64,000 nucleotides of DNA from an uncultured Acidobacteriota bacterium (GCA_964645975.1 CAZYAF010000010.1:67682-131681), one strand, 5' to 3'; counted from the stretch's first letter, positions 21,370 through 50,328 are shown. Notes: generated by a model from the letters alone, not told the origin. Made by a program: numbers and translations.

Positions 21370-22212
21370 ATGAAAATATTATTTTTTCGTAAAGTCAAAG
21401 CTTATAGAGTTTTTATCGTCGGTTTCATCATTCTATTAGGAGCCGTAGCTTTTTATTTGAGCTGCCAGTCGAAATCTCCTACCGATGCTGCCGTACCTTC
21501 GACGGAATCCCTTGCAGCCAGGGATGCGAAAGGTACCACTCAAACAACTACTTCCTCAAGCACAACGACGACGATAAAGCCATTGAGCTCAGCTTCTATC
21601 TCCACGACCATCATCACTTCGCGTAACCTGACCACTACCTCTACCACATCTACTACTACATCAACAACTTCAATTCCAGGTGCCACTACCTCAATAATTC
21701 ACCCGGCTAATGTGAAATTTTGCTATATTATTGGAGTTTATAAACTCATGTGGGATGGTGTTGGCACGCAGCGCGCAAAAGGAGTGTCAAAGGTACCAAA
21801 ACAGATAACCATTTACAATGGCGATACTGTGCACATTCCCTGGGAATATTGCTTGAGCTTAAATTTCTACGTTCATAATGTTGGTGGTTCTCCGGCAGAA
21901 AATGTTAAGATTATTCCTCTATCCGGGCTAGCAACTTCTCAAAATATTTACAGAGGAGTATCTGGTGATCCTACAATTCCTATGCCTGTACTTCCTGAGA
22001 TAGCATTTCTTGCAAATGATGGCGTATGTGTAAAGCATCCACTTAGTTCTTTTTATCAATGCAAGAAAATTCAACTAAATACAGTAACCTCTCAAACTAC
22101 TATTGCCTGTGTGGTGAACAAATTTAAGTTGGACTGGAAAGATGCGAGATGGGATTCAGAATTCAGTTTTACTCAGTGTTATGGATATCCGAATAATTCC
22201 GTTCCCCATTAG
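21370..22212 (+). CDS. Secreted/membrane-anchored mucin-like protein, paralog 1: signal-anchor, Ser/Thr-rich linker, Cys-containing CARDB-like C-terminal domain
   Basis: YLSCQSKSPTDA lipobox-like N-terminus. The TTQTTTSSSTTTTIKPL low-complexity S/T tract is conserved at the nucleotide level with paralog 2. C-terminal NVGGSPAENVKIIP motif. Confidence 0.7.
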   Translation: MKILFFRKVKAYRVFIVGFIILLGAVAFYLSCQSKSPTDAAVPSTESLAARDAKGTTQTTTSSSTTTTIKPLSSASISTTIITSRNLTTTSTTSTTTSTTSIPGATTSIIHPANVKFCYIIGVYKLMWDGVGTQRAKGVSKVPKQITIYNGDTVHIPWEYCLSLNFYVHNVGGSPAENVKIIPLSGLATSQNIYRGVSGDPTIPMPVLPEIAFLANDGVCVKHPLSSFYQCKKIQLNTVTSQTTIACVVNKFKLDWKDARWDSEFSFTQCYGYPNNSVPH

Positions 22213-22424: not shown

Positions 22425-22690
22425 ATTGTGAAAAAGGGATGTTTGTGAACAGGGAAAATTTCTATAAATTTTTTCCTTCCTTGTATTATTCTTCTCTTAG
22501 GTAAGTGTAGTAGCCATCTATTTAAGCTGTACATCCAAATCTCCTGCAGATGCTACTGCACCTTGAAGTGAGACTTTGGCAGCCAAGGGTGCAAATAATA
22601 CAACACAAACAACCTCCTTAATCATCAAAACGACCACCGCACGGCCATCGAGCTCAGCAGCTACTTCCAGTTTACAATTTGTGTTCAGGT
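22425..22690 (+). pseudogene. Decayed fourth copy of the mucin-like paralog family. Start codons are mutated to GTG, there is an in-frame TGA, and the C-terminal domain is lost.
   Basis: Nucleotide similarity to the 5' regions of paralogs 2 and 3. Translation VAIYLSCTSKSPADATAP*SETLAAKGANNTTQTT matches the family. The upstream region is also paralogous. Confidence 0.65.
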
Positions 22691-22979: not shown

Positions 22980-23792
22980 ATGAAGGATAATATTATTATA
23001 GGAAAGAAAAATTACAGCTATTGTATTTTATGTTTTATTCTTCTTATAGGAATTTTAGTTTTTTATTTAAGTTGTGAATCCAAATCTCCCACTGATGCTA
23101 CTGCAGCTTCAACTGAAACCCTGGCAGCCAGAGGTACGAAAGGCACTACTCAAACAACTACCTCCTCCAGCACAACGACGACGATAAAACCCTTGAACCC
23201 GGCTGCTACCGCCAGTACTATCGTCACCTCTCGAAACCTTACTACCACCACTATTGGCGTGCTACCGACGACTACTACAACAATAAGCCAATTACCTGAT
23301 GTGCAGTTTTGCGATATTATGGTACTTTATGAAAGGCGGAATTTTCCAATTCTTAATTCAAAGGGAGTTGTGCCACCAGAAGATCTGCCACATAAATTGT
23401 TTATTAAAAATGGTGGCACCATTAGGATTCCTATCCAGGGGTACTGCGTGAAAATATATGTCCGGGTTAAAAATGTTGGTGGTGCTCCGGCAAATAATGT
23501 TAAGGTTATTCCTGAAAACCTAATTAGTACAAAATATTTTGACAGGCGAGCTATGAATCATTTTGAACCTCCTGTGATTCACACCCTCCCAAATGATAGT
23601 TATTGTAGAGAGCATCCTGTTAGTAATATATTTTGGTATGGCTGTTGGGCTCGGGACGCTGGGCAAATTATAAAATCAACTATATTTTTACCAGAGTGCA
23701 TTGATATTTATTTGAAGCTGCAATGGCAGGGTGCAACGCATGAGCCAAAATTCCAATTTAAAATTTGTTTTTATTGGCCGTATGATGATTAA
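22980..23792 (+). CDS. Mucin-like secreted protein, paralog 2
   Basis: Same N-terminus and S/T linker as paralog 1 (FYLSCESKSPTDATAASTETLAARGTKGTTQTTTSSSTTTTIKPL). The C-terminal domain is diverged and retains KNVGGAPANNVKVIP. Confidence 0.7.
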   Translation: MKDNIIIGKKNYSYCILCFILLIGILVFYLSCESKSPTDATAASTETLAARGTKGTTQTTTSSSTTTTIKPLNPAATASTIVTSRNLTTTTIGVLPTTTTTISQLPDVQFCDIMVLYERRNFPILNSKGVVPPEDLPHKLFIKNGGTIRIPIQGYCVKIYVRVKNVGGAPANNVKVIPENLISTKYFDRRAMNHFEPPVIHTLPNDSYCREHPVSNIFWYGCWARDAGQIIKSTIFLPECIDIYLKLQWQGATHEPKFQFKICFYWPYDD

Positions 23793-24016: not shown

Positions 24017-24739
24017 ATGAAAGAGGAATATATGAACAGGCAAAATTTCCACTGGTATTTTATTCTTTGTTTTATTCTTATCTTGGCTGTTGTAGCTTTT
24101 TATGTAAGTTGTAAATCGAAGTCTCCTACAGAATCCACATCAGCATTGAATGGGCAGGTCGCAGGACAGAATGCGAATAGCACCACTCAGACCACCACCT
24201 CTTCCAGCACCACAACTACTGTCAAACCGGAAAGTTCACCTACCAACACCACCACTCTCATTACTTCCAGAAACCTGACAACTACCTCCACTTCTACATC
24301 CACCACAACCTCTATACCAACAACCACTACAACCACAAAAAGACCAACCACTACATCAATAGGAAATCCCTTGTTGAAATGGTGCTCTGTTACGATTAAT
24401 GGAATACCAAGAGGAGAAGTTTATGATATACCACCTAATTCAAAGAAATTAACTATTGGTATTTCCATTAAAAATGTTGGAACAGCTCCTGCAAAAAAAG
24501 TAGCTGCTAACCTATATATTGAAGATCCCTCGGATAATATATTTCCAGTATCTGATGGTTATGAATATCTGGGAACGATTCCGGCTGATAATAAGTGTTA
24601 TGGTTCATCATCAGCTTTTTATATGGAAGTCGTCGGCACTCCTTCGGATGACTGGTGCTGGATTCATATAGTAATAAACGTCCCCGGTTGTAAAAACTGC
24701 TCCATCGATTATTATATTTATATTGATGTAATATACTGA
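24017..24739 (+). CDS. Mucin-like secreted protein, paralog 3
   Basis: FYVSCKSKSPTES followed by an S/T tract and TSRNLTTTS. The C-terminal domain is diverged and Cys-rich, with KNVGTAPAKKVAANLYI. Confidence 0.7.
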   Translation: MKEEYMNRQNFHWYFILCFILILAVVAFYVSCKSKSPTESTSALNGQVAGQNANSTTQTTTSSSTTTTVKPESSPTNTTTLITSRNLTTTSTSTSTTTSIPTTTTTTKRPTTTSIGNPLLKWCSVTINGIPRGEVYDIPPNSKKLTIGISIKNVGTAPAKKVAANLYIEDPSDNIFPVSDGYEYLGTIPADNKCYGSSSAFYMEVVGTPSDDWCWIHIVINVPGCKNCSIDYYIYIDVIY

Positions 24740-39671: not shown

Positions 39672-40202
39672 ATGAACCAAATAGTTGACATAAAAAAGGA
39701 TGAAAATAATTTTAAATGGTATGCCATTTATACACGGAGCCGACATGAGTTTAAAGTCAACAAAGAATTATCTCGAAAGCAATTTGACACATTCCTTCCC
39801 GTAGCTAATTCTTTACGGCGCTGGAAAGATAGAAAAAAGTATATAGAAACTCCCTTATTTCCCGGTTATTTATTCATAAATTGTCAGATGGATAATTATA
39901 AACATTTAGAGATTCTGAAGACTAAAGGTGTGGTGCGAGTTTTGGGGATAAATAAAAAGGAGTTATCTACCATCCCGCATGAAGAGATAGAATCGATCAG
40001 GATATTAACCGAGAATAACGCCACCATTAACTCCCATCCCTATGTGAAAGAGGGGAGTAGCGTAGAGATAATAAGCGGACCTTTAGCTGGCGCTAAGGGG
40101 ATTTTGATCGAAAAGGACGTGTATAAATCCACCATAGTTGTATCTATTCACCTTTTAGGAAGAAGCATCTCGGTGGAAGTAGATAGCTGTGATATCAGGT
40201 AA
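39672..40202 (+). CDS. NusG-family specialised paralog (UpxY/LoaP-like transcription antiterminator), copy 1
   Basis: NGN domain KWYAIYTRSRHEFKVNKEL...FPGYLFIN. C-terminal KOW-like segment GSSVEIISGPLAGAKGILIEK. Confidence 0.75.
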   Translation: MNQIVDIKKDENNFKWYAIYTRSRHEFKVNKELSRKQFDTFLPVANSLRRWKDRKKYIETPLFPGYLFINCQMDNYKHLEILKTKGVVRVLGINKKELSTIPHEEIESIRILTENNATINSHPYVKEGSSVEIISGPLAGAKGILIEKDVYKSTIVVSIHLLGRSISVEVDSCDIR

Positions 40203-40565
40203 TAGTGTGCTAATTGCAAGGGAAATAATCCCTTTTTGATATAGTAAAGTTTGATTGAGAGATTTGTTAATTTTAGATATGAAAGAGGCCAATGTAACTA
40301 AGAGTGCGAAGCTGTGTATATTTTAAATAGAAAATAATAATTGCAGTTAAAAATTTATCTTAAAAGTAACTTAGAATGTAATTAAGTCAATTAGAACCAG
40401 ATATAAAAATTGTTGAATTTGCTCAAGAATTTGGCAAAAAATATTCTTTATACACTCTTGAAAAAAATCCAGAAGAACAACACCCCATCAATAATTTTAA
40501 TAAGAGCTTGATCTTATCCATGAAAACATCAGTAATATGCACTAATAGACTATGAGAAGACCCCA

Positions 40566-41102
40566 ATGAATTCCACGATATGCAATCAAGAATTAGATAA
40601 ATCTCTTAAATGGTATGCTATATATACCCGAAGTAGACATGAATTTAAGGTAAATCAGGAATTAGCTCGAAAGCAATTTGACACCTTTCTGCCGGCAGTT
40701 AAATCTCTGCGACGTTGGAAAGATAGAAAAAAATACATAAATATCCCTTTGTTCCCCGGATACTTATTCCTCCATTGTCAAATGGATGATCATAAATATC
40801 TAGAGATTCAGAAGACTAATGGTGTGGTAAAAGTTCTAGGGAAAAATAAAAGGGAATTGTTCTCTATTCCAGATGAAGAGATAGAATCGGTCAGGATATT
40901 AACCGAGAATAAAACAACCATTAAGCATCATCCCTATGTGAAAGAGGAAAATAGTATAGAGATAGTAAATGGTCCTTTAGCTGGAACAAAGGGAATTCTA
41001 ACAGAGAAGGACTCGCATAAATCCACCATAGTTGTAACTATACACCTTATAGTAAAAAGCATCTCATGTGAAGTTGATAATAGCGATATTGAACCTTGTT
41101 GA
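40566..41102 (+). CDS. NusG-family specialised paralog (UpxY/LoaP-like), copy 2, a tandem duplicate
   Basis: About 70% aa and about 80% nt identity to copy 1 over the NGN and KOW regions. Confidence 0.75.
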   Translation: MNSTICNQELDKSLKWYAIYTRSRHEFKVNQELARKQFDTFLPAVKSLRRWKDRKKYINIPLFPGYLFLHCQMDDHKYLEIQKTNGVVKVLGKNKRELFSIPDEEIESVRILTENKTTIKHHPYVKEENSIEIVNGPLAGTKGILTEKDSHKSTIVVTIHLIVKSISCEVDNSDIEPC

Positions 41103-41307
41103 AATGCTTATAAATAAGGTCTGTTCTGGCTGCAGAGCCAGAAGTTGATTAAACATTAAATAATATGGCTATGAAAAGGAGTTAATGCATCAGATAGGGG
41201 GAAGAGGTAAATTGATATTAAAAAGAGCGATATTCATTTGATCTCTTTTATAAACCTAAGCTTACTAATGGTAAGTTAAATATTTTAAATCTAAAGGAGA
41301 AACATAA

Positions 41308-42477
41308 ATGCTCGATGCTTTAATTGTCGGTTCAGGACCTGCTGGAAGTCATGCTGCATATCTATTAGCTAACATGGGATACGAGGTAATGCTATTAGAG
41401 GGTAAAAAGACTCCAAAGAAATTCATAAACTGCACCGGCATACTCGGCTTCGAAGCCTTTCAGAAATTCAACCTCTGGGATGTTCCTATTCTAAATCGCA
41501 TTAATAAAGTCAAATTTATATCACCACGCGGCAAAACCTTTGCCTATCATTCCGATTCAGATTTAGCTTATGTGGTAGAACGCATAGGATTTGATTCTTA
41601 TCTAATAGATAGAGCGATAAATGCAGGAGCTTCTTTTATGGACAACAGCTGGGTTAATAAGATATCAATAAATGGAGACGGAGTGAGAGCTGAAATATCC
41701 TCCAAAGACCAATCAATAAAATTAGATGCGAAGGTAGCGATTATCGCTGCCGGATTTGGTTCCCATTTAATCGAGATAGCGGGTCTTAAGAATCCTCCCG
41801 GATTCATCGAGGCTGCTCAAGCAGATGTCTATGGTTCAGGCTTTGATACAACCGAAGTATATCTTGGAAGTGAAGTTGCCCCCGGTTCTTTTGCCTGGTT
41901 TGTGCCTTTAGGAGAGGAAAGAGCCTTAGTGGGACTTACCACAAAAAAGGAGTGCACAAAGTATCTGAAGAAATTGCTAAATAAGATAAAAACTGAAAAA
42001 GATATTACAGAGACAAAAAATTTGCAATGCAGCCATCTTCCATTAGCTGTAATTCCTAAAGGATATTCTGAAAGAGTCCTTGTCGTAGGAGAAGCAGCCG
42101 GTCAGGTAAAAACCACCACTAACGGTGGTATCTACTATGGGATGATCGGTGCAGACTTTGCCGCTCAAGTTTTGCATAAAACCTTTCAGCAGAACCGCTT
42201 CGATGAAGAAATCTTAAGTAAATACGATCAACTATGGAAAGCTAAGCTTGCTCCAGAGATTAATACCGGTCTAAGACTAAGGGAATTATATTCCGGTCTA
42301 TCGGATTCTAAGATAAATCTTCTCTTAAGCATTATAAGTATGAACGGAATCATGCCGCTCATAAGGAAAAACCTCAACTTCGATTGGCACCAAGGATTAA
42401 TTTCATCCCTGATAACTAATCCTTTAATCGATCGGTTTTTTAGCTCCAAAATGCAAAGTGAAAATGTAAAACACTAA
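41308..42477 (+). CDS. FAD-dependent oxidoreductase, geranylgeranyl reductase family
   Basis: GxGxxG motif in LIVGSGPAGSHAAYLLANMGYEVMLLE. About 390 aa, typical of the GGR/FixC-like family. Confidence 0.7.
   Translation: MLDALIVGSGPAGSHAAYLLANMGYEVMLLEGKKTPKKFINCTGILGFEAFQKFNLWDVPILNRINKVKFISPRGKTFAYHSDSDLAYVVERIGFDSYLIDRAINAGASFMDNSWVNKISINGDGVRAEISSKDQSIKLDAKVAIIAAGFGSHLIEIAGLKNPPGFIEAAQADVYGSGFDTTEVYLGSEVAPGSFAWFVPLGEERALVGLTTKKECTKYLKKLLNKIKTEKDITETKNLQCSHLPLAVIPKGYSERVLVVGEAAGQVKTTTNGGIYYGMIGADFAAQVLHKTFQQNRFDEEILSKYDQLWKAKLAPEINTGLRLRELYSGLSDSKINLLLSIISMNGIMPLIRKNLNFDWHQGLISSLITNPLIDRFFSSKMQSENVKH
42266..42420 (+). repeat. Direct repeat copy A: last ~155 bp of the geranylgeranyl-reductase-family gene
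   Basis: About 80% identical to 43415-43562 (CCGGTCTAAGACTAAGGGAATTATATTCC...AACCTCAACTTCGA...TCATCCCT). Confidence 0.8.
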
Positions 42478-42573
42478 TTCACTTTACATCAATTTCAAAC
42501 ATCGATGAAGAAAACAAGAGATTTATTAGCATATAAGCAATCGTTTTCTATAGAATAATAAAGATATCGCCAA

Positions 42574-42759
42574 ATGAAGAAATTGAAGATTTTAATAATT
42601 ACTGGAATTTTTCCCCCAAATATTGATAGACCAGCAACATATGTCTCTCAGATAGTAAATTTCTTAGCAAAACATGGCCATAAAATCACTATTTTTGCTC
42701 TGAGTGAAAGTTTAGACTATGCTCATAATAGAAAAAACCGAGAAAGTGCTGTGGAATAG
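42574..42759 (+). pseudogene. N-terminal fragment (61 codons) of a GT4-family glycosyltransferase
   Basis: MKKLKILIITGIFPPNIDRPATYVSQIVNFLAKHGHKITIF is a typical GT4 N-terminal domain start. The ORF terminates after 61 aa. Confidence 0.55.
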
Positions 42760-42767
42760 CTCCAATC

Positions 42768-43394
42768 TTGCAAGAGGCAAAGATGAGTTATAATCCTGAT
42801 GTAATCCTTGAAGTTATCCCCAGCGGAACTGGATATGTTCTTGAATTAGGAGGAGCAAAAGGGATACTGCGACCATACCTTCAGGAACGCGGCTACAACT
42901 ATATTAACGTAGATATTAAATGTTTCGAGAATGGAGAACCAACGCTTATTGGTGATGCGCAAAATCTTCCTTTCAAAGATAGTGTTTTTGATATAATAGT
43001 AGGCAAGGATACCTTGGAGCATTTCATAGAACCATGGACGGTTGCCGAAGAAGCTTTTCGTATTCTGAAGCCAGGTGGATTATTCATTATATATGTGTCA
43101 TTTATGTATGGCTTTCCTGGGAACGATTTTTATCGGTATAGCTCTTTAGGTTTTCAGCACCTGTTGAAAGATTTTGAAATAGTTTTGTTAGATGGTTGCC
43201 AATGGATATTTACATTGATTGGTCAGATAGTTATTGGAGGACTTAAACAGCTTCATCTTGGATTTTTAGAACCATCTATCAAGAAGCCATGCTATTGGTT
43301 GGACAAGCTCTTTACTCGGAACCGTAAGCGTCCTGCAAATTTTGCAGCAGCTTATCGAGTTGTGGCCCGTAAACCAAGCAAGCAATCCGCATAA
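42768..43394 (+). CDS. Class I SAM-dependent methyltransferase
   Basis: Motif I VLELGGAKG. Post-I acidic residue. LKPGGLFIIYV motif. Confidence 0.7.
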   Translation: MQEAKMSYNPDVILEVIPSGTGYVLELGGAKGILRPYLQERGYNYINVDIKCFENGEPTLIGDAQNLPFKDSVFDIIVGKDTLEHFIEPWTVAEEAFRILKPGGLFIIYVSFMYGFPGNDFYRYSSLGFQHLLKDFEIVLLDGCQWIFTLIGQIVIGGLKQLHLGFLEPSIKKPCYWLDKLFTRNRKRPANFAAAYRVVARKPSKQSA

Positions 43395-43414
43395 ATATGG
43401 GAATGCTGCTCAAA

Positions 43415-43562
43415 CAGGTCTAAGGTTAAGGGAATTATATTCCCATCTAACCGATTACAAAATAAATCTCCTCTTCAGCATAATAAATATGAACGGAATT
43501 ATACCACTTATAAAGAAAACCTCAACTTCGACTGACATAGAGGATTAATATCATCCCTAATA
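43415..43562 (+). repeat. Direct repeat copy B: a degenerate duplicate of the 3' end of the geranylgeranyl-reductase-family gene
   Basis: Translation TGLRLRELYSHLTDYKINLLFSIINMNGIIPLIKK matches residues TGLRLRELYSGLSDSKINLLLSIISMNGIMPLIRK of the gene at 41308-42477. Confidence 0.8.
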
Positions 43563-43721
43563 AAAAAGCACGCTATTCAAAAATTTTTAGGTATTAAGTT
43601 TTAAAGCTTAAATAAGACCATTTGTGCTTGATTTTTTTTATTTCACAATATAGAAAGAAAAATTAAAACTTTTAATATAGAAGTGTTGGAAACTAAAGAG
43701 AGTAGATAAGGAGGCTATGAA

Positions 43722-44705
43722 ATGTCATTTTGGACAAATAAGGAAGTATTAGTAACCGGAGGAGCTGGTTTTATTGGTTCACATCTGGTTGAATTTTTAT
43801 TAGAAGAAGGGGTAAAAGTTAGCATTGCGGATAATCTGGAAAGAGGTAAATTTGAAAATTTGAGAAATGTAGAAAAAGATATTAACTTTATTAATATTGA
43901 TTTACGAGAGTTTGATAATTGTAAGAAAGCTTGCAAGGGACAAGAGGTTGTATTTAATTTAGCAGCTAAAGTTACTGGAATTGAGTATAACAGAACCCAT
44001 CAAAGGGAAATGTTTGAAAATAATATGTTACTCCAGCAGTATCCCCTAAAAGCTGCCACTGAAATGGGTGTAAATAGGTTTTGCCAGGTAAGCACTGCCT
44101 GTATCTATCCTCATGATGCCATTGTTCCAACCCCGGAAAGTGAAGGCACTCGAGGCGAACCAGAGCCGACAAATGGTGGCTATGGATGGGCAAAAAGGAT
44201 GGGCGAGAGACTAGCAGAATATTATGCGCAAGAAACAGATATGGAAATTGTAATAGTCAGACCCTTTAATGCCTATGGTTCACGAGATTATTATGATGAA
44301 AAAACCTCCCATGTAATTCCAGCACTAATAAAGAAGGTAATGGATGGAAATAACCCAGTTGTTGTGTGGGGAAGCGGAAATCAAAGTCGAGTGTTTATTA
44401 ATGCAAAGGATATTGCCAGAGGAATGATGTTGGTTACGGAAAAATATTCAAAAGTAGATCCAGTAAATTTAGGTCATAATGAAGAGATAAAAATTAAGGA
44501 TTTATTGAAAATAATTCAGGAGATGACTGGAATTCATAATGAAGTATTCTATGATACATCAAAGCCCGAGGGATACCCAAGGAGAGCTGCAGACACATCA
44601 AAATTAAAAAAGGTAACAAATGGCTTTATACCTTCCATATCATTAGAAGAAGGTATAAAAGAAATGATCAAATGGTATGAGAACCAGAAAAGCATTGGTA
44701 ACTAA
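43722..44705 (+). CDS. NAD-dependent nucleotide-sugar epimerase/dehydratase (SDR family)
   Basis: VLVTGGAGFIGSHLVEFL Rossmann motif. YxxxK catalytic region GGYGWAKRMGE. Confidence 0.75.
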   Translation: MSFWTNKEVLVTGGAGFIGSHLVEFLLEEGVKVSIADNLERGKFENLRNVEKDINFINIDLREFDNCKKACKGQEVVFNLAAKVTGIEYNRTHQREMFENNMLLQQYPLKAATEMGVNRFCQVSTACIYPHDAIVPTPESEGTRGEPEPTNGGYGWAKRMGERLAEYYAQETDMEIVIVRPFNAYGSRDYYDEKTSHVIPALIKKVMDGNNPVVVWGSGNQSRVFINAKDIARGMMLVTEKYSKVDPVNLGHNEEIKIKDLLKIIQEMTGIHNEVFYDTSKPEGYPRRAADTSKLKKVTNGFIPSISLEEGIKEMIKWYENQKSIGN

Positions 44706-44718
44706 AATAGCAGATTTT
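44583..44718 (+). repeat. Direct repeat copy A: last ~135 bp of the epimerase gene
   Basis: About 88% identical to 45982-46116. Confidence 0.8.
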
Positions 44719-44895
44719 TGTGGGTTCAAAGGAAAAATAATTCAGGATACCAGCAAGCCTGATGGGCAACCGAGAAGAGGGCTTGATACTTATTGAGCCG
44801 AAAAGGAATTCGGCTTTAGATCCGGGATAAATTTTGATGAAGGTCTAAAAAAGACAATTAATTGGTGCAGAAAATATAGAAATCAACTAAGTTAA
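44711..44895 (+). pseudogene. 3' remnant of a GDP-L-fucose-synthase-like (fcl-type) epimerase/reductase with an in-frame TGA
   Basis: Translation [57 protein letters not shown] matches fcl C-termini (DTSKPDGTPRKLLD...LGW...EGL). Confidence 0.55.
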
Positions 44896-44975
44896 TCTAA
44901 GAAAGTTTCATTCCATCTTTTAACAGTTAGTATTATTCCTTCTGTTTAATTGAATGAGGAAAAGCTTTCAATTGT

Positions 44976-45962
44976 ATGAGTTCAAAAGATCAGAGACTTA
45001 AGCTAATATGCCCAAATTGCCATGCTGACTTAAGCGAGCAGAAAGGTTTATTTTTATTTTGTAATACATGCATGAATAAATATCCTATTATAAAAAGAAT
45101 TCCTTCATTTATAGAAAAAGAAAAAACTTACGGCGGAGGTCAGGGACAATTTAATCAACTTTTTAAAGGAAAACTTGTAGAAGAAAAAAATTTAATAATA
45201 AAATTATATAACAAAATTTCGTGTTCCCAAAATAGAATTGCTTTCATTAAAAAACATTTAAAGAAATATTCTGGTTCAAAAATATTAGATATAGGATGTG
45301 GGGGAGGGGGATTAGCCTTTTTATATAAAAAGTACTCAAATATATTAATAGGATTAGATGTTAGTTTAGATTCGTTAATGCAGGCGAGAAAATTTGATAT
45401 ATATGATTTATTAATTCATTCCTCAATTGAAAGCAATCCATTTCCTGAAAATTATTTTGATGTAATTGTTAGTTCAGATGTATTAGGGCATACTTTTTTA
45501 AAAACAAAAGAAGAAGCATATCATGAAATGTGGAGAATTCTAAAACCCCAAGGTGCGATGATTCATGTTATCGAAACAGATAGCACAAACTTTTGGATTA
45601 GAATTGCTAAGAAAAACCCACAATTATATAAAACAAACCATATAGATAAACATGGCCATATAGGAATGGAATTGCCTAGCATTATTATAAAAAGATGCAA
45701 AAAAATCGGTTTTAAAATTATTGATACTTCTAAAATACATGCTATTATTCTGCCGCCAGAAGTTATAATTTCTTGGTTTGATGGAGATTTTGATCGACCT
45801 TTTTTTATAGATTTTTTTCTATATTTTTCAAAAATTACCTGTTCAAGCAAATATTTTAATTTCTTAATAAATTTTATTCTTGGCATGATTGAAAAACCTC
45901 TAAATAAAATTATACCTATCGACTGGACCACAGGGCTTTTGCTTTGTGCTCAAAAAAAGTAA
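44976..45962 (+). CDS. SAM-dependent methyltransferase with an N-terminal Trm112-like zinc-ribbon
   Basis: CPNCHADL...CNTC four-Cys ribbon. Motif I LDIGCGGGGLAF. Confidence 0.65.
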   Translation: MSSKDQRLKLICPNCHADLSEQKGLFLFCNTCMNKYPIIKRIPSFIEKEKTYGGGQGQFNQLFKGKLVEEKNLIIKLYNKISCSQNRIAFIKKHLKKYSGSKILDIGCGGGGLAFLYKKYSNILIGLDVSLDSLMQARKFDIYDLLIHSSIESNPFPENYFDVIVSSDVLGHTFLKTKEEAYHEMWRILKPQGAMIHVIETDSTNFWIRIAKKNPQLYKTNHIDKHGHIGMELPSIIIKRCKKIGFKIIDTSKIHAIILPPEVIISWFDGDFDRPFFIDFFLYFSKITCSSKYFNFLINFILGMIEKPLNKIIPIDWTTGLLLCAQKK

Positions 45963-45981
45963 TCCTGAAAGCTATCTCATA

Positions 45982-46116
45982 AGAGCTGCTGATACATCAA
46001 AATTAAAGAAAGTAACAAATGGTTTTATTCCTTCCATAGCTTTAGAAGAAGGTCTAAAAGAAATGATCAAATGGTATGAAAACCAGAAAAGCATTGGTAA
46101 TCAAAATAGCTGATTT
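45982..46116 (+). repeat. Direct repeat copy B: duplicate of the epimerase 3' end
   Basis: Translation SKLKKVTNGFIPSIALEEGLKEMIKWYENQKSIGN matches the C-terminus of the gene at 43722-44705. Confidence 0.8.
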
Positions 46117-46171
46117 ATATAAATTAAAATTAAAAATTTTCAGTATTAGAATTTTATGCCATTGGTTTTAA

Positions 46172-47755
46172 ATGAATAAAGCAGGTGAAGGACATAAGGT
46201 ATTAGTATTAAATGACAAAGAGCCTAAGGAAACTTTAGAACAGCTAACTAAACAAATTGCCAAAGGAGGGAGTATTGCTTCTATTGGCAGCATGATCGGA
46301 AAAGCTCTTGGCTTTGGATTGCATATTCTATTGGGAAGGATACTGGGACCTGCACAATATGGGCTTTATGCGTTGGGGCGTAGCGTGATGGGTATTACCC
46401 AATCTATAGCTACTTTAGGTTTGAACCAAGGAGTCGTTCGATATGGAGCAATATACCGTGGTGAGAGGGATAATGCTCGAGTGAAAGGAACAATTCTTTC
46501 CGCACTTGGGATTTCTATGGTCTTCAGCATTCTTATTAGCGCTTTATTGGTCCTCTTCTCCAGTTTCATCGCTCAGAGGATCTTTAAAGAGCCTGAACTT
46601 ATAAAGGTGCTTCAGGTCCTTGCTTTAGCGCTTCCCTTCTATGTGCTTATGGGTATAACAACCTCATTTGCGCAGTCGTTCCGAAGAATTTGGTATCAGC
46701 AAGGAGTTCTAAAAATCTTTAACCCAATAGTCCACTTTCTCTTGGTTGGAATAGCCTTCCTACTTGGTTTTCGACTTGCTGGCGCAGTCTATGGATTTTT
46801 GATTTCTGGAGTACTTAGTGCCGGTTTGGGATTTTATTTCTTATGGAAGATCTTTCCCGAGGTTAAGTCGCTTCTTGCACCATCATATAATATTAGGCAG
46901 TTGCTTTTCTTTTCCCTTCCGACTTTTTTCATTGGCATTTCATATTTATTACTGAATTATACTGATCGAATAATGCTGGGATATTTTAGAGCAGCCAGCG
47001 ATGTAGGTATTTATAGCGCCGCATCTACTACATCTTTACAAATGGCTATATTTTTAGCTGCTTTTATCACAATTTTCTCACCCATAGTATCTAATTTATA
47101 CAATCAAGCAAAACGTAAAGAATTGGAAAATTTGTTCAAGGTTGTAACCAGATGGGTATTTACCTTAACACTACCACTATTTATTATAATAGCGATATTC
47201 TCAAAAAGCATTATGCTCATATTCGGTTCAGAGTTTGTAGCAGGTTGGATAGTATTAATTATTCTTGCCTTTGCTCAGCTGGTCAATGTTGGGACAGGCC
47301 CAGTTGGTATGCTGCTGCAAATGACAGGTAAACAATATATTGATTTCGCCAATGGATGGGGACTTTTTCTTTGCAACATTGGCTTAAATTTGTGGTTAAT
47401 CCCAATTTATGGTGCTTTAGGAGCAGCATTAGCAACTGGAATATCCTTGATGCTCATTCATATAGCAAGGTTGGTGGAAGTTTTAAAAATCTTATATATA
47501 ACTCCTTATGATAAGCGCTTTATTAAGCCAATTTTAGCCGGACTTATTATGGCAATAGGAGCCATATTTTTTAAATTAATTATTCGAAGCTTTACAAGCT
47601 GGATTTGGATTTTTTTAGGTTTAAGTCTTTTGGTGATTGTTTACATTGCAATCCTTTATGCAATAGGCTTAGATCAGGAGGATAAGATTGTATTGTCGGC
47701 AGTTAAGAGAAAGCTTTTAAAGACAAATTTTAGTTTATTTCGACAAAAGCTTTAG
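46172..47755 (+). CDS. Oligosaccharide flippase (Wzx, MOP superfamily polysaccharide biosynthesis protein)
   Basis: About 12-14 TM helices. Typical polysacc_synt N-terminal region. Size fits the family. Confidence 0.7.
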   Translation: MNKAGEGHKVLVLNDKEPKETLEQLTKQIAKGGSIASIGSMIGKALGFGLHILLGRILGPAQYGLYALGRSVMGITQSIATLGLNQGVVRYGAIYRGERDNARVKGTILSALGISMVFSILISALLVLFSSFIAQRIFKEPELIKVLQVLALALPFYVLMGITTSFAQSFRRIWYQQGVLKIFNPIVHFLLVGIAFLLGFRLAGAVYGFLISGVLSAGLGFYFLWKIFPEVKSLLAPSYNIRQLLFFSLPTFFIGISYLLLNYTDRIMLGYFRAASDVGIYSAASTTSLQMAIFLAAFITIFSPIVSNLYNQAKRKELENLFKVVTRWVFTLTLPLFIIIAIFSKSIMLIFGSEFVAGWIVLIILAFAQLVNVGTGPVGMLLQMTGKQYIDFANGWGLFLCNIGLNLWLIPIYGALGAALATGISLMLIHIARLVEVLKILYITPYDKRFIKPILAGLIMAIGAIFFKLIIRSFTSWIWIFLGLSLLVIVYIAILYAIGLDQEDKIVLSAVKRKLLKTNFSLFRQKL

Positions 47756-47873
47756 CTATTAACTTAGATGTAGAAGATTGGCGTGCGGTAATACTGCTAA
47801 TTCATCAAAGTTTGTGCAGTGTTAAATGGGATTTGTTTGAAACTTAAACATTTATTTTTTTCATTGAATAAAA

Positions 47874-48845
47874 ATGAAAAATATTATTTTCATTTTTTCT
47901 TTACCAAGATCTGGTTCTACTTTACTACAAAAAATATTAATGTCTCATAGCAAGATTGATTCTGTATCAGAACCTTGGATTCTTCTACCATTCCTTTATA
48001 CATTAAAACCCGAAGGAGTTTTTACAGAATATGATGCTGGAACTTGCTATCGAGCAATTCAGGATTTTATTAGTAACATGCCTAACAAAGAGCAAGATTA
48101 TATAAATGCGATAAGATCCTTTGCAATTTCTTTGTATGATAAAATATGTGATCCTAATGCGAGGTATTTTCTTGACAAAACCCCTCGCTACTATTTGATC
48201 ATTCAATTAATAGCTGATCTATTTCCCAATGCAAAATTTATATTTTTATTTCGCAACCCTTTGGAAGTATTGGCATCAATTATCAAAACCTGGGGAAAGG
48301 GAAAATTTAAAATTTATCATAGCTATTTGGATCTTTACGAAGGACCGAAGCTCTTAGCACAAGGGTATCGTCAATTTAAAGAAAGAAGCCTTAAAATAAG
48401 ATACAACGATTTAGTAATTTCGCCGGAGGCCACACTTCGTAAAATATTCGAATATTTAGAATTAGAATACAAAGTGGATGTTATAAATTATTTTAGCAAA
48501 ATAAAATTAAAGGGAAGAATGGGTGATCCTTATAATTATAGATACATTAAAATTGAAAAAAAAAGCTTAGAAAATTGGAAGAAGATTTTATGTTTTAGAT
48601 TTAGACGATTTTTTGCTAAAAGGTATCTAAAATATTTAGGTGAATCCATACATAATACCTTTGGATTTGATATTAATGATTTACTCAGTCAATTAAAATC
48701 CCTAAAAGTTTCCAATAGGCATATATTTTCAGACATTTTGAACTATTATGGGGGTGCTCTCAGTCGCATTTTGGAATTGCCCATGCAAAAAAAAAGGCTC
48801 AGAAATTTGATTACAAGAAATGAAAGATTATATCTGCATTCTTGA
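47874..48845 (+). CDS. Sulfotransferase family protein (PAPS-dependent)
   Basis: 5'-PSB-like P-loop FIFSLPRSGSTLLQKIL. 3'-PB-like region FIFLFRNPLEVLAS. Confidence 0.7.
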   Translation: MKNIIFIFSLPRSGSTLLQKILMSHSKIDSVSEPWILLPFLYTLKPEGVFTEYDAGTCYRAIQDFISNMPNKEQDYINAIRSFAISLYDKICDPNARYFLDKTPRYYLIIQLIADLFPNAKFIFLFRNPLEVLASIIKTWGKGKFKIYHSYLDLYEGPKLLAQGYRQFKERSLKIRYNDLVISPEATLRKIFEYLELEYKVDVINYFSKIKLKGRMGDPYNYRYIKIEKKSLENWKKILCFRFRRFFAKRYLKYLGESIHNTFGFDINDLLSQLKSLKVSNRHIFSDILNYYGGALSRILELPMQKKRLRNLITRNERLYLHS

Positions 48846-49035
48846 TTCCACGGACTTTGACGAGAAGATTTTTTAAGGTGCTACTTCATTAAAAGTAATC
48901 ATATTAAATTGCCAGCATATTACATAGTGTAAAAAATTATTGAATATATAGGCAGAATGTACTTTATTAATATTTTTGTATAAAAAAACTGAATAAATTT
49001 TAAATCAATAATATTTATATATAGTAAAGATAGTT

Positions 49036-50328
49036 ATGCAGTCAAAGAGACAGATTTCTACAATTATATTCATTTGGCTTTGTTTAATAATTTTCCTTTT
49101 ACCTATATTTACTACTGGAACGTTCAGAGTTCCATTTTTTTCTAAATTTAAAACTGACTTTTTAATTTTGTTATCTGTGTATTTAATACCTGTTACTATA
49201 TTAATTGAAAAATCAAAAATCCCTTATTCATTCTCTGATTTATTTATTTATTCGCTTTTTATTTTAATCCTATCATTATTTTATATTGCATCTTTTTGGA
49301 TATCAAAATCTACTGATATCTCAATTCAATATTGGAAAGCATTAATAATTCATTGTTTATTTTCAATAATGATATTATTAACATTAAGAAATTATTATCG
49401 ATATAAAACAATTTGTAATTTAATGGTATTAGGTAGCATAATTGTAAGTCTTGTCTCATTAGCAAAATTAGTTGGTATCATCCCCCTAGAATACCCAGTA
49501 CCAGAAAAACAATATCTTGATCTTAATATTTATATTCAAAGCAATATAATGTATGGCATAAAAACAAATTATGGTACATTTTTTACTTCAGGACGATTTT
49601 CAATGTGGCAGAGTTTTGGTTTATGTTTTCTTTCTTATATTTTAATATTTGAAAAAAGACATTATTTAAAAAAGTTTTTGTGTTTAATAGGGTGTGTTAT
49701 GATTATTAGTTCAATCATAATTGCACTTTCTAGAAATGCAATATTAGTATCATCTGTAGGGATAATTATTTTATTATTTATAAAGATCCATAGCAGTTGG
49801 AAAAGAAGCAGCTTATATGGCAGAGTTTTAATTAGTTGTCTTTTTTCAATTTTTCTATTTTTATGCATTTTATATGGAATCAAAATATTCTATTTTGCTG
49901 AAAGCGTAAGAGGTTTCGAAGGACGCTTTGATCAATGGAGGCTAGCTTTCTTTTTGCTGCAGGACCATTGGTTTTTTGGGATAGGTCCAGGTGTTTTCTC
50001 TTTATTTGCGGTTCTCAATCCATTTATGCATAATACTTATTTACAGATTTGGCTTGCTTCTGGATTTATCAGCCTTATTTTATTCATATTTCTATTTCTG
50101 TTTCCTATCATTCATATTTTCAAATTTTTAAAAATTAATTATAGTATAAAAAATTTGTCTTCTCCTGGTGTTTATTCATTAACAATTTGCATGATAGTTG
50201 TGAATGCTTGTTGGATGTTAGCATTGCTGTTCTTTCCAGGATTGCACATTCATGAAGTTTGGCTAGCAATTGGGTTAATTTCCTCTTTGCCTAATCTGAT
50301 TAGAAATGAAAAGCTTTTGACCTCGTAA
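49036..50328 (+). CDS. O-antigen polymerase-like polytopic membrane protein (second Wzy-type candidate)
   Basis: Very hydrophobic with about 10-12 TM helices. Large loop with LSRNAILVSS similar to the Wzy_C loop. Confidence 0.5.
   Translation: MQSKRQISTIIFIWLCLIIFLLPIFTTGTFRVPFFSKFKTDFLILLSVYLIPVTILIEKSKIPYSFSDLFIYSLFILILSLFYIASFWISKSTDISIQYWKALIIHCLFSIMILLTLRNYYRYKTICNLMVLGSIIVSLVSLAKLVGIIPLEYPVPEKQYLDLNIYIQSNIMYGIKTNYGTFFTSGRFSMWQSFGLCFLSYILIFEKRHYLKKFLCLIGCVMIISSIIIALSRNAILVSSVGIIILLFIKIHSSWKRSSLYGRVLISCLFSIFLFLCILYGIKIFYFAESVRGFEGRFDQWRLAFFLLQDHWFFGIGPGVFSLFAVLNPFMHNTYLQIWLASGFISLILFIFLFLFPIIHIFKFLKINYSIKNLSSPGVYSLTICMIVVNACWMLALLFFPGLHIHEVWLAIGLISSLPNLIRNEKLLTS

Follow-up and report, generated by a model that had tools for sequence, protein, structure and literature searches.

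Gene-end repeats in a surface-polysaccharide locus of an uncultured Acidobacteriota bacterium: candidate seams of splicing between related loci

Two methyltransferase genes in a polysaccharide locus of an uncultured Acidobacteriota bacterium are each bracketed by an intact gene and a diverged second copy of that gene's 3' end. On balance we favor, with some reserve, the view that these repeats are seams from repeated splicing of related, non-identical versions of the locus, each splice leaving behind the 3' end of the gene it displaced. On alignment, the block to the left of the second repeat (epimerase, Fcl stub and methyltransferase 2) is common to a sister genome, and the right-hand modules differ. 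At least three successive splices can apparently be read from the stacked gene ends. Positions given here refer to "the window", the whole stretch of 64,000 nucleotides that was analyzed (GCA_964645975.1, CAZYAF010000010.1:67682-131681), counted from its first letter.

The locus and its setting

The genes of the region are those of a polysaccharide biosynthesis cluster, with Wzz/tyrosine kinase, CpsB, Wzy_C, UpxY, Wzx, sulfotransferase, glycosyltransferase and Rml genes all found. The shuffled region is headed by a pair of antiterminator genes (Table 1) whose UpxY assignment rests on an NCBIfam score of 130.9 bits (cutoff 100); the paralogues share 70% amino acid identity, and 79% nucleotide identity across 300 nt. 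To the right of the seam lie wzx, and then a sulfotransferase gene and wzy. Assemblies of other samples (JGI, ENA and Logan) yielded contigs 100% identical to the window, from 5 distinct source records (L001-L006); both repeats and their junctions are contained in two of these contigs. The source samples are JGI 3300005782 and 3300008517, SRR3085435 and SRR3085416. With three pipelines, several samples and 5 distinct source records in complete agreement, an assembly artefact is ruled out.

Table 1. Features of the shuffled region, in window coordinates
Feature	Position	Strand	Basis or remark
Two tandem UpxY-family (NusG-like) antiterminator paralogues	39672-40202, 40566-41102	+	Head of shuffled region
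Geranylgeranyl-reductase-family flavoprotein, intact	41308-42477	+	TIGR02032, 192 bits (cutoff 158.8)
GT4-like glycosyltransferase N-terminal fragment, 61 codons (gene-start stub)	42574-42759	+	Weak Pfam Glyco_transf_4, E 0.044
Methyltransferase 1, class I SAM methyltransferase	42768-43394	+	Pfam Methyltransf_11, E 2e-14
Reductase 3'-end stub	43414-43575	+	Frameshift and stops; alignments
Intact SDR epimerase/reductase, Fcl/GME-like clade (allele W)	43722-44705	+	Pfam Epimerase, E 1e-58; PDB matches
Fcl-like 3'-end stub, about last 63 codons	44707-44897	+	In-frame TGA at 44794-44796
Methyltransferase 2, class I SAM methyltransferase	44976-45962	+	Pfam Methyltransf_11, E 6e-17; N-terminal CxxC...CxxC motif
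Short, strongly diverged SDR-like piece	45963-45981	+	Abuts methyltransferase stop; in register with epimerase codons KPEGYPR
Epimerase 3'-end stub (allele R)	45982-46104	+	40 codons plus former stop, TAA to CAA
Decayed copy of start of Fcl-like stub	46105-46150	+	31/43 against 44706-44748; three-way alignment with sister
Wzx-type flippase	46172-47755	+	Opens right-hand module; Pfam Polysacc_synt, E 2e-29

The epimerase 3'-end repeat

The first-pass annotation had described a recurrence of 44583-44718 at 45982-46116 with about 88% identity, and the repeat is real. A repeat search returned 44562-44738 against 45961-46137 (82% over 177 nt), and alignment of 44540-44740 with 45940-46140 gave a mean column identity of about 88% over 202 columns. 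Counted in register, the upstream copy, which is the last 41 codons of the epimerase (44583-44705), matches 45982-46104 at 111 of 123 positions (90%); random in-register 21-mers of the region agree at only about 27%. The translation reported for the downstream copy was also reproduced, ending ...SKLKKVTNGFIPSIALEEGLKEMIKWYENQKSIGN with the stop TAA turned into CAA, and a Methyltransf_11 gene does lie between the two copies, as had been stated. The intact upstream gene has GDP-L-fucose synthase as its best NCBIfam match, at 194 bits and thus under the 500 cutoff. The downstream stub, 280 codons short and with its stop lost, is non-functional.

The borders of the repeat are uneven. At 45982 identity steps from 52% to 90% with no indel and still in register (Fisher p 1e-4); to the left of this point, 44562-44582 and 45961-45981 agree at 11 of 21 positions (chance of at least 11/21, 0.025). 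Beyond the epimerase stop, similarity continues for about 43 nt, with 31 of 43 positions identical and one gap. The post-stop sequence AAATAGCWGATTT... is common to the window epimerase (W), the sister epimerase (S) and the stub (R), and the junction between epimerase and Fcl stub therefore predates the proposed splice. The short diverged piece between the methyltransferase 2 stop and 45982 would be an older stub, already in place behind the methyltransferase before the splice. The case for it is a thin one, made up of the same 21 nt and about 9 nt common to one sister genome.

Three alleles of the epimerase end

The downstream copy had been taken as a duplicate of the neighboring gene end; comparison of W, S and R points instead to a third, diverged allele. 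Over the 40-codon core, R and W differ at 9 synonymous and 2 non-synonymous positions (pS 0.38, pN 0.021, dN/dS 0.04), and neutral decay of one copy is rejected both by a binomial test (p 0.0012) and by simulations with transition and AT bias (p 0.003-0.008). Pairwise differences number 8 for W-S, 11 for W-R and 16 for S-R, so that W is nearer to the allele of the sister than to the stub in its own locus. Nine sites have the pattern WS|R and only one has SR|W; at 6 of the 9 WS|R sites R agrees with one or both of the outgroups L007 and L009. The states diagnostic of R are T at 44591, T at 44594, G at 44609, A at 44612, T at 44624, T at 44630, and Ala for Ser at 44640-44642. On these site patterns R branches outside the window/sister pair. 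The synonymous bias and the outgroup states together indicate that R is the tail of a third, formerly functional allele, and its divergence under purifying selection, with its position outside the W/S pair, places it in a working gene of another lineage until recently.

One feature might seem to speak for local copying: W and R both end in WYENQKSIGN, a tail absent from homologues that are 83-85% identical. The same type of tail, WYENQKNIGN, is present in a close allele of another genome, so it is lineage-wide and is not evidence of local copying.

The sister genome

The closest comparison is with locus L022 (equivalent to L011 plus L023), termed here the sister genome, whose data are SRR11637895 and JGI 3300034982. 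Positions 92-2364 of L022 align to window 43665-45964 at 85.9% nucleotide identity, collinear from the epimerase, and the homology stops 2 nt beyond the methyltransferase 2 stop, where the stub begins. Beyond that point the sister carries an Fcl-type stub, two methyltransferase genes (MTb and MTc) and a different Wzx. Its stub contains internal stops and starts at the identical SDR codon, directly behind the same methyltransferase stop, but its SDR type differs from that in the window; stub R is absent from the sister at this place. The window stub thus sits where window/sister homology ends, and the borders of the upstream cassette coincide with an empty site in the sister.

Methyltransferase 2 is the last gene of the shared left block (88.8% nucleotide identity to L011). 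The first-pass annotation had cast the methyltransferase as the unit that moved; for cassette 2 it instead belongs to the part in common with the sister, and all that lies rightward differs. A comparison with related assemblies had been suggested in search of alternative cassettes between the same anchors, and it was borne out in part: the sister does lack cassette 1 and has another right-hand module, but methyltransferase 2 itself is present in both.

The gene is low in G+C (24-31%), and its native C-terminus, IPIDWTTGLLLCAQKK, is kept throughout the family. It had been labeled a "Trm112-ribbon" enzyme. The CxxC...CxxC motif is there, but matches to zinc-ribbon families in Pfam are sub-threshold (best E 0.0015, 18 bits against a cutoff of 25.5) and Trm112p (PF03966) gives no match at E up to 10, so that the label could not be confirmed. 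For one distant homologue (P0136) the precomputed annotations do include PF03966. An inherent tie of this family to gene-end brackets was considered and rejected, as homologues of 41-63% identity (loci L012, L013, L014 and L018-L021) lie in ordinary operons with no SDR fragments alongside.

Cassette 1 and an older scar

A second block of matching form had been noted, and it lies 2 kb upstream: a reductase end, a glycosyltransferase fragment, a methyltransferase and a copy of the reductase end. The 3' end of the intact reductase (about 42265-42457) is the upstream copy, of which 42265-42415 recurs at 43414-43563 with 82-85% identity. A longer reductase stub, reaching into the 3' end of the methyltransferase 1 gene, was also considered; tblastn points to 43336, but the DNA alignment there is unconvincing and the longer stub was therefore not adopted.

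In the sister a 1.2 kb block (42458-43664) that includes methyltransferase 1 is missing, as is the GT4-like fragment. L023 1-322 aligns to window 42136-42457, and L023 320-1547 to window 43665-44890; on these alignments the reductase of the sister runs straight into the epimerase, which presents the empty site for cassette 1. The flank downstream of the reductase stub is 87% identical to the sister in a three-way alignment, and it is to this stub, not to the intact reductase, that the region upstream of the epimerase is attached, matching the order in the sister. Site patterns for the reductase are SW|R at 29 sites, SR|W at 14 and WR|S at 5; the asymmetry of 14 to 5 has by our calculation a binomial p of about 0.06 and is suggestive only as evidence on the direction of the cassette 1 change. 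The window may have gained the cassette by insertion, or the sister may have lost it by loop-out deletion, and the data fit either course. The right junction of cassette 1 (43395-43413) shows no clear homology; that of cassette 2 is in register with SDR coding sequence.

Between the epimerase and methyltransferase 2 lies a further fragment, described at first pass as resembling the C-terminus of GDP-fucose synthase with an in-frame TGA; translation and structure matches bear this out. Its best solved-structure match is E. coli GDP-fucose synthetase, residues 260-314 (PDB, E 1e-6), and it has 66% amino acid identity to an Fcl-like protein adjoining wzx in locus L015. The sister has the same stub with a stop at the identical codon, and on this evidence the fragment is an older scar common to both genomes.

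Other relatives and searches

Comparable arrangements occur elsewhere. In locus L007 the epimerase and a chimeric epimerase/Fcl 3' stub are separated by a DegT-containing segment; the stub extends over the start of the flippase gene and contains its AGGAG, and in the same locus a reductase fragment abuts an SDR fragment with the look of a deletion product. Locus L017 has an intact Fcl gene, then further SDR 3' fragments, then wzx; L015 has the unscarred order fcl-wzx, and L024 an unrelated region upstream of its Wzx homologue. Among Wzx homologues the nearest have 63-67% identity, with an Fcl-like gene in front of two of them. The order proposed below as parental, epimerase-A directly before this wzx, was found neither in a scan of genome contigs (which returned one distant Sumerlaeota locus), nor in a first metagenome scan (which returned nothing), nor in the contexts of the Wzx homologues; both collection scans are uninformative on this point.

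The identity switch at 45982 and the L007 chimera make "gene ends as homology anchors", with exchange as at capsule loci, a fair description of what the first-pass annotation proposed, and the crossovers do seem to fall inside gene ends. The recurrent shuffling that it also proposed holds as to architecture, which recurs and is tied to differences in gene content between relatives, but no ongoing process is visible. Neither population heterogeneity nor circle junctions were seen in the available assemblies, which have one fixed arrangement throughout; since all are identical, they give no direct sign of continuing exchange.

Signs of a dedicated recombination system were also sought. Pfam named no recombinase, integrase or transposase on ten ORFs in 39672-50328, and there was none among the precomputed Pfam families for window 33722-57412 (by way of L001/L004). 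The repeat search found no inverted repeats at cassette borders or ends. The two cassettes have no short, identical, att-like core in common, the repeats being 120-190 nt long and 82-90% identical. For structured RNA, Rfam at E<=1 gave a single, spurious snoRNA match that lies outside the repeat.

A proposed splicing history

In the history that we favor, a locus with the order epimerase-A, short Fcl stub, wzx and onward would have recombined with a locus carrying, further along, epimerase-B, an Fcl stub, the methyltransferase and an old SDR stub. The two would have crossed over in register with the old stub, somewhere within the final ~45 codons of epimerase-A, by RecA-type homologous or homeologous recombination with DNA that came from a related strain. 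Like events could account for cassette 1 and for the Fcl stub. In these the upstream crossover would be homologous, and the junction to the right, lying in the resident gene, could be of either kind, homologous or illegitimate, the latter as in homology-facilitated illegitimate recombination. The stubs may later have been shortened by deletions. A linear double crossover, a Campbell-type circle integration, and fusion followed by deletion all predict an identical end structure.

Once formed, a gene-plus-stub pair could act as homology arms, bringing the enclosed genes into relatives that have the anchor gene, or letting them loop out. A broader proposal, which we hold to be rather unlikely and offer as speculation, is that Fcl/GME-like SDR genes, and the reductase gene too, provide in their last ~50 codons a general, recombinase-free docking system in this uncultured group. 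Were it correct, any block of modification genes with such a bracket would be portable by homologous recombination alone and excisable by loop-out, and successive swaps could be read off the stacks of stubs before wzx.

Alternative readings

Fusion followed by trimming is improbable in our estimation, but it accounts for a diverged, formerly functional allele equally well. Here the complete left block would have been joined before a complete second epimerase; deletions reaching as far as the methyltransferase stop would then have removed the 5' 280 codons of that gene, and the stub would be what they left, not the site of a crossover. O-antigen clusters are known to lose remnants by serial deletion (PMC3715488), and the abutting reductase and SDR fragments of L007 resemble just such a product. 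Against it stand the stub of the sister, which is of another SDR type and yet starts at the same SDR codon after the same stop, and the 21 low-identity nucleotides that are in register with the high-identity core. A crossover in a stub that already existed explains both observations more readily than would two deletions arising independently.

We give a similarly low probability to mobile cassettes that travel with no recombinase, by which a loop-out circle carrying one gene-end copy would re-integrate, Campbell-style, at a homologous gene end elsewhere. Single-crossover integration is expected to leave a direct-repeat bracket, the presence of cassette 1 in the window and its absence from the sister fit excision or integration, and the constant junction of methyltransferase stop and stub in window and sister would be the joint of circle closure. 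For cassette 2, however, the left block is shared with the sister and it is the whole downstream module that differs, not the presence of the methyltransferase; nor is the upstream copy a hybrid of two SDR types. The lack of circle junctions and heterogeneity in the assemblies, and the distant methyltransferase homologues that have no such bracket, likewise tell against it.

That the stub is kept by present selection, as a small protein or as expression signals for wzx, seems very unlikely. Gene callers do predict a 55-codon ORF at 45946-46113, selection on a peptide might explain the bias toward synonymous differences, the L007 stub overlaps a flippase start and carries its AGGAG, and a weak promoter-like site lies at 46124-46152. 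But the stub has lost its original stop and its frame continues into junk, the strongly diverged piece makes up the N-terminal third of the ORF, and the stub of the sister contains internal stops. Apart from that one site, a promoter/terminator scan found the stubs not above shuffled expectation, and promoter-like sites were fewer than in shuffled sequence (11 against a mean of 21.6). Such a reading would also leave the origin of the copy unexplained.

In-place segmental duplication of the epimerase 3' end, whether by tandem duplication and deletion or of a target-site type on methyltransferase insertion, with decay of the extra copy, is rejected by the dN/dS and the allele tree, and we regard it as highly improbable. 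The unusual tail in W and R and the direct repeat around a low-GC, inserted-looking gene would suit it; it is contradicted by the dN/dS of 0.04 with neutral decay rejected, by the outgroup position of R with ancestral states at 6 sites, by the missing stub in the sister, and by the WYENQKNIGN tail in another genome.

The least credible reading of all is site-specific insertion, in which an integrase, or an integron-like or transposon-like system, would target the 3' ends of genes and furnish a new end for each (attL/attR-type). The order of gene, cargo and 3'-end copy is in its favor. Against it are 120-190 nt of diverged coding sequence in place of a short identical core, no core common to the borders of both cassettes, no border inverted repeats, no Rfam element, and no family of recombinase, integrase or transposase in the ORFs and gene calls covered (window 33722-57412).

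Comparison with known systems

The splicing history favored here, if correct, affords a nucleotide-level view of how the surface-polysaccharide locus of an environmental bacterium was pieced together, in which the sister genome supplies both the empty site and an alternative right-hand module. It is also a worked example of how synonymous-site patterns and a three-allele comparison separate a recombination seam from a local duplication. For annotation, small ORFs such as 45946-46113 are better treated as scars than as genes. Portability of a bracket by homologous recombination alone, if true, would be a modest conceptual addition on how glycan diversity spreads without mobile-element machinery.

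Integrative elements that enter the 3' end of a gene leave an intact gene, the cargo and a copy of the gene's 3' end, bounded by attL and attR. The present arrangement of intact gene, cargo and diverged 3'-end copy is alike in outline, but among the ORFs and gene calls examined (33722-57412) there is no integrase, there is no short identical core, and the cargo is one or two biosynthetic genes with stubs of other genes. Nor does it resemble an integron gene cassette, having no inverted repeats at the cassette ends, no Rfam element and no integrase within 33722-57412.

Homology-facilitated illegitimate recombination was reportedly described in naturally transformable bacteria by de Vries and Wackernagel and by Prudhomme and colleagues, in both cases in 2002. 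There one homologous anchor admits foreign DNA and the other end joins nearby at little or no homology; a like event could have yielded here an incoming gene with its cargo and then the leftover of the resident gene. The right junction of cassette 2, by contrast, looks homology-guided, being in register, and the classic experiments reportedly gave mostly insertion-deletions and not retained duplicate ends. Serotype switching by way of conserved flanking genes (dexB and aliA in pneumococcus, galF and gnd in E. coli) is alike in that conserved genes serve as homology arms for swapping polysaccharide-specific blocks between strains. It differs in that the present anchors are inside the locus, in pathway genes, with crossovers in the last tens of codons, and in that scars remain, whereas flank-anchored switches are not known to leave any such scars.

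Transformation-driven merodiploidy arises by alternative pairing of repeats, giving tandem duplications of 100-900 kb between IS copies (Johnston et al. 2013, PMC3784515). In both settings a donor repeat would pair with a non-allelic copy to give hybrid repeats and rearranged junctions by RecA-dependent recombination alone; here, however, the repeats are gene ends of ~150 nt and the outcome is the swap of a block.

The nearest parallel in kind is with O-antigen clusters, in which gene remnants at junctions are a recognized trait, as with wzy remnants and block junctions in the Gal-initiated clusters of Salmonella (PMC3715488). In both cases non-functional gene pieces lie between functional genes at the borders of blocks of differing history, serial deletions trim the remnants, and related strains differ in the block on each side. 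The locus described here shares the marks of that class: its fragments are non-functional, they lie at a block boundary in a polysaccharide cluster, and the donor allele was functional in another lineage. There is thus no new mechanism in it, since block-junction remnants are well known in O-antigen and capsule loci. The differences from Salmonella are that the host is not an enteric pathogen but a low-GC bacterium of sediment, as yet uncultured; that the remnants are 3' ends of gene families (Fcl/GME-like SDRs and the reductase) also intact just upstream, for which reason they read as direct repeats; and that one of them has an in-register identity switch, pointing to a crossover inside an older remnant.

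Locus architecture

Both gene-end repeats lie within a long polysaccharide locus with all of its genes on one strand (see table). The arrangement is genuine, since the window is matched at 100% identity by JGI, ENA and Logan contigs from other samples (L001-L006; five distinct source records). No alternative arrangement occurs among these contigs, and the shuffling of modification genes proposed in the first-pass annotation finds no sign of current heterogeneity to support it.

Main features of the locus and of one array outside it (window positions)
Feature	Position	Description
5' part of locus		Wzz/tyrosine kinase, CpsB, Wzy_C protein, TPR protein, in that order
Next in locus		two UpxY-family antiterminators, then geranylgeranyl-reductase-family flavoprotein, SDR epimerase
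After epimerase		Wzx flippase, sulfotransferase, second Wzy_C protein
End of locus		glycosyltransferases, Rml genes, 2-epimerase
UpxY-family genes	39672-40202; 40566-41102	complete tandem pair, 70% aa, 79% nt over 300 nt
Epimerase 3'-end direct repeat	44562-44738; 45961-46137	82% over 177 nt (repeat search)
Core of repeat	44583-44705; 45982-46104	111/123 identical, counted in register
Fcl stub	44707-44897	63 codons, in-frame TGA
Methyltransferase 2	44976-45962	class I SAM methyltransferase
55-codon ORF	45946-46113	annotated publicly as a gene on the window's contig (L001 12225-12392)
Three tandem paralogues	21370-22212; 22980-23792; 24017-24739	34-41% aa identity; outside polysaccharide region
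N-terminal fragment, same family	22471-22671	about 50% aa, E about 1e-11

The UpxY pair sits mid-locus, 3' of the Wzz, Wzy and TPR genes, and may represent the joined heads of two operons, or another splice. In a relative, L007, the epimerase directly follows the TPR gene with neither UpxY genes nor a reductase between them. Elsewhere in the window, the fragment lying in a gap between the three tandem paralogues is another gene stub within a repeated array.

A third epimerase allele at the downstream end

The reported repeat of the epimerase 3' end is confirmed, as is the translation given earlier for its downstream copy, stub R. The former stop codon of R has changed from TAA to CAA, and the 55-codon ORF is this stub reading through the lost stop.

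R had been taken for a duplicate of the neighbouring gene end. Over a 40-codon core, it differs from the intact epimerase of the window (allele W) by 9 synonymous and 2 non-synonymous changes (pS 0.38, pN 0.021, dN/dS 0.04). Local duplication followed by free decay of one copy, which predicts about two thirds non-synonymous differences, is rejected on this synonymous excess (p about 0.001, or 0.003-0.008 when transition and AT bias are simulated). A second allele, S, was found in the same 90% protein cluster (P0257) and comes from a sister genome whose locus L022 is identical to L011 and L023 in overlapping parts. Core differences number 8 for W-S, 11 for W-R and 16 for S-R; 9 sites unite W and S against R, and at 6 of these R has the state of at least one more distant homologue (L007, L009). 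R, lying outside the W/S pair, thus branched off before W and S separated, with hardly any decay since. Given that early split and scarce decay, R is not a local duplicate and must have belonged until recently to a working epimerase gene of another lineage, here called epimerase-A.

A seam to the right of methyltransferase 2

Comparison with the sister genome also changes the standing of the methyltransferase, which had been seen as the moving unit. L022 is collinear with window positions 43665-45964 at 85.9% identity, from just upstream of the epimerase through methyltransferase 2, including the Fcl stub, with its in-frame stop at the same codon, and the spacer. The alignment ends 2 nt 3' of the methyltransferase stop codon. 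Beyond that point the window has the epimerase-type stub and then its own wzx, sulfotransferase and wzy; in the sister, an Fcl-type stub that contains an internal stop and has lost about 10-12 nt (three to four codons) is followed by two more methyltransferases and a different flippase. With a shared left side and a differing right side, the idea of methyltransferase 2 as a cassette inserted between gene-end copies falls away. The gene closes a left-hand block common to both genomes, and the repeat lies at the seam with a different right-hand block.

The Fcl-like gene-end fragment behind the epimerase was correctly recognized: its best solved-structure matches are to residues 260-314 of E. coli GDP-fucose synthetase (E 1e-6). 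It is markedly better preserved in the window than in the sister. The "Trm112-ribbon" label of methyltransferase 2 is not confirmed, as its N-terminal CxxC...CxxC motif gave no significant match to Trm112 or other zinc-ribbon families in a profile search. Seven loci with more distant homologues of the enzyme (41-63% identity) are ordinary operons, none with SDR fragments alongside, so the bracket belongs to the locus lineage and not to the enzyme family. Across 44900-46100, G+C is 24-31% in methyltransferase 2 versus 36-44% in the flanking epimerase and wzx, consistent with a different origin of the gene.

The seam at nucleotide level

The epimerase copies are 29% identical up to 44561, 52% over 44562-44582 and 90% from 44583. 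The jump at 44583 (Fisher p 1e-4) involves no indel, and the weak and strong parts therefore share one reading register. The sister's Fcl-type stub likewise starts with the SDR codon for the P of KP[DE]G, directly after the same stop codon. This gives a thin indication, from 21 nt (chance probability 0.025) and about 9 nt shared with one genome, that an SDR stub already lay 3' of the methyltransferase before window and sister diverged. A crossover inside that older stub would then have joined it, in the window lineage, to the 3' end of epimerase-A.

On the right, the copies remain homologous for about 43 nt beyond the old stop (31/43 matches). The first Fcl-stub bases, AAATAGCWGATTT..., are common to W, S and R, so that the epimerase/Fcl-stub junction predates the splice; the parental right-hand locus would have been [epimerase-A][shortened Fcl stub][wzx]. 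The gene neighbourhoods around the nearest Wzx homologues are consistent with this. In L015 an intact Fcl-like gene ends 20 nt before wzx; in L017 an intact Fcl gene is followed by more SDR 3' fragments (at 693-749 and 865-921; one E 1e-3, one weak) and then wzx; L024 has neither Fcl gene nor SDR fragments before wzx. The L017 interval (540-930) also holds a CTATCTCACTTTCTTAC-like unit in a short tandem array. In L015, the GDP-mannose dehydratase 5' of fcl is in two ORFs (1879-2915; 201 and 112 aa) and is apparently disrupted, in a relative with an otherwise unscarred fcl-wzx arrangement.

In the opening bases of the Fcl stub (window 44706-44722, aligned with 46105-46121 and L022 1137-1155), several positions unite the sister with the window's stub copy and set both apart from the window's upstream copy. 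The coding core immediately to the left groups the other way, with window and sister together and the stub apart. This reversal hints at one more recombination breakpoint close to the stop codon of the epimerase.

Recurrence at cassette 1 and in relatives

The block about 2 kb upstream, cassette 1, has the same outline: reductase, a 61-codon glycosyltransferase start fragment, a methyltransferase and a frameshifted copy of the last ~50 reductase codons. The sister has an empty site. In L023, the intact reductase 3' end (window 42136-42457) adjoins the epimerase upstream region (window 43665 onward), without the 1.2 kb holding the glycosyltransferase fragment, methyltransferase 1 and reductase stub. 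In the window, the reductase end that adjoins the epimerase upstream region, the arrangement seen in the sister, belongs to the stub and not to the intact gene (flank 87% identity), and the stub's variable sites are shared with the sister at 14 positions versus 5 with the window's intact copy. Cassette 1 is a further splice event, or else was reversed in the sister.

L007, with the closest epimerase outside the cluster (85%), has the order epimerase, DegT aminotransferase, small ORF, short reductase-like fragment, 64-codon SDR stub and flippase. Its SDR stub is at first epimerase-like (85% nt to window 44493-44572) and Fcl-like from a switch between KP and DGQPRR onward; this chimera provides direct evidence for recombination between different SDR gene ends at the conserved motif. 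The stop of the stub and the flippase's TTG start overlap just after AGGAG, so the stub carries the flippase's ribosome-binding site. Within L007 4231-4508, the reductase-like fragment (E 0.008) adjoins the stub. Recurrent events with gene ends as crossover points, as had been proposed, are thus upheld by cassette 1, the L007 chimera and the in-register seam.

Mechanism and known systems

The simplest account is serial splicing of related loci. In each splice, conserved pathway genes would have anchored homologous recombination, and the right-hand junction would have fallen within the 3' part of the resident homologue; deletions would later have trimmed the leftovers. That junction would be homology-guided at cassette 2 and, at cassette 1, without visible homology, as in homology-facilitated illegitimate recombination, reportedly likewise a recombination-only route to rearranged junctions in transformable bacteria. 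Nearest wzx, the Fcl stub copy would be a trace of an original [fcl][wzx] neighbourhood; leftwards, the epimerase-A tail would derive from an epimerase that replaced most of fcl, and the left block ending in methyltransferase 2 would have replaced most of epimerase-A in turn. The structure does not discriminate between three routes to it: a double crossover of linear DNA, a looped-out circle that integrated Campbell-style, and a fusion that later underwent deletion. No recombinase family appeared in a Pfam search of ten ORFs (39672-50328) or in precomputed Pfam results for 33722-57412 (via L001/L004), and searches for an att-like core, inverted repeats at the borders or a structured RNA gave nothing.

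O-antigen clusters are known to carry gene remnants where blocks meet, cut down by successive deletions (PMC3715488), and rearranged junctions arising by recombination alone are established in transformable bacteria (PMC3784515). The window's stubs share the defining features of the O-antigen junction remnants and lack those of integrase, integron and tandem-duplication products. They are a clear, fresh example of a known scar type, in an uncultured low-GC lineage, and are slightly unusual in that the scars are ends of gene families intact just upstream and that one seam appears to show an in-register crossover inside an older scar.
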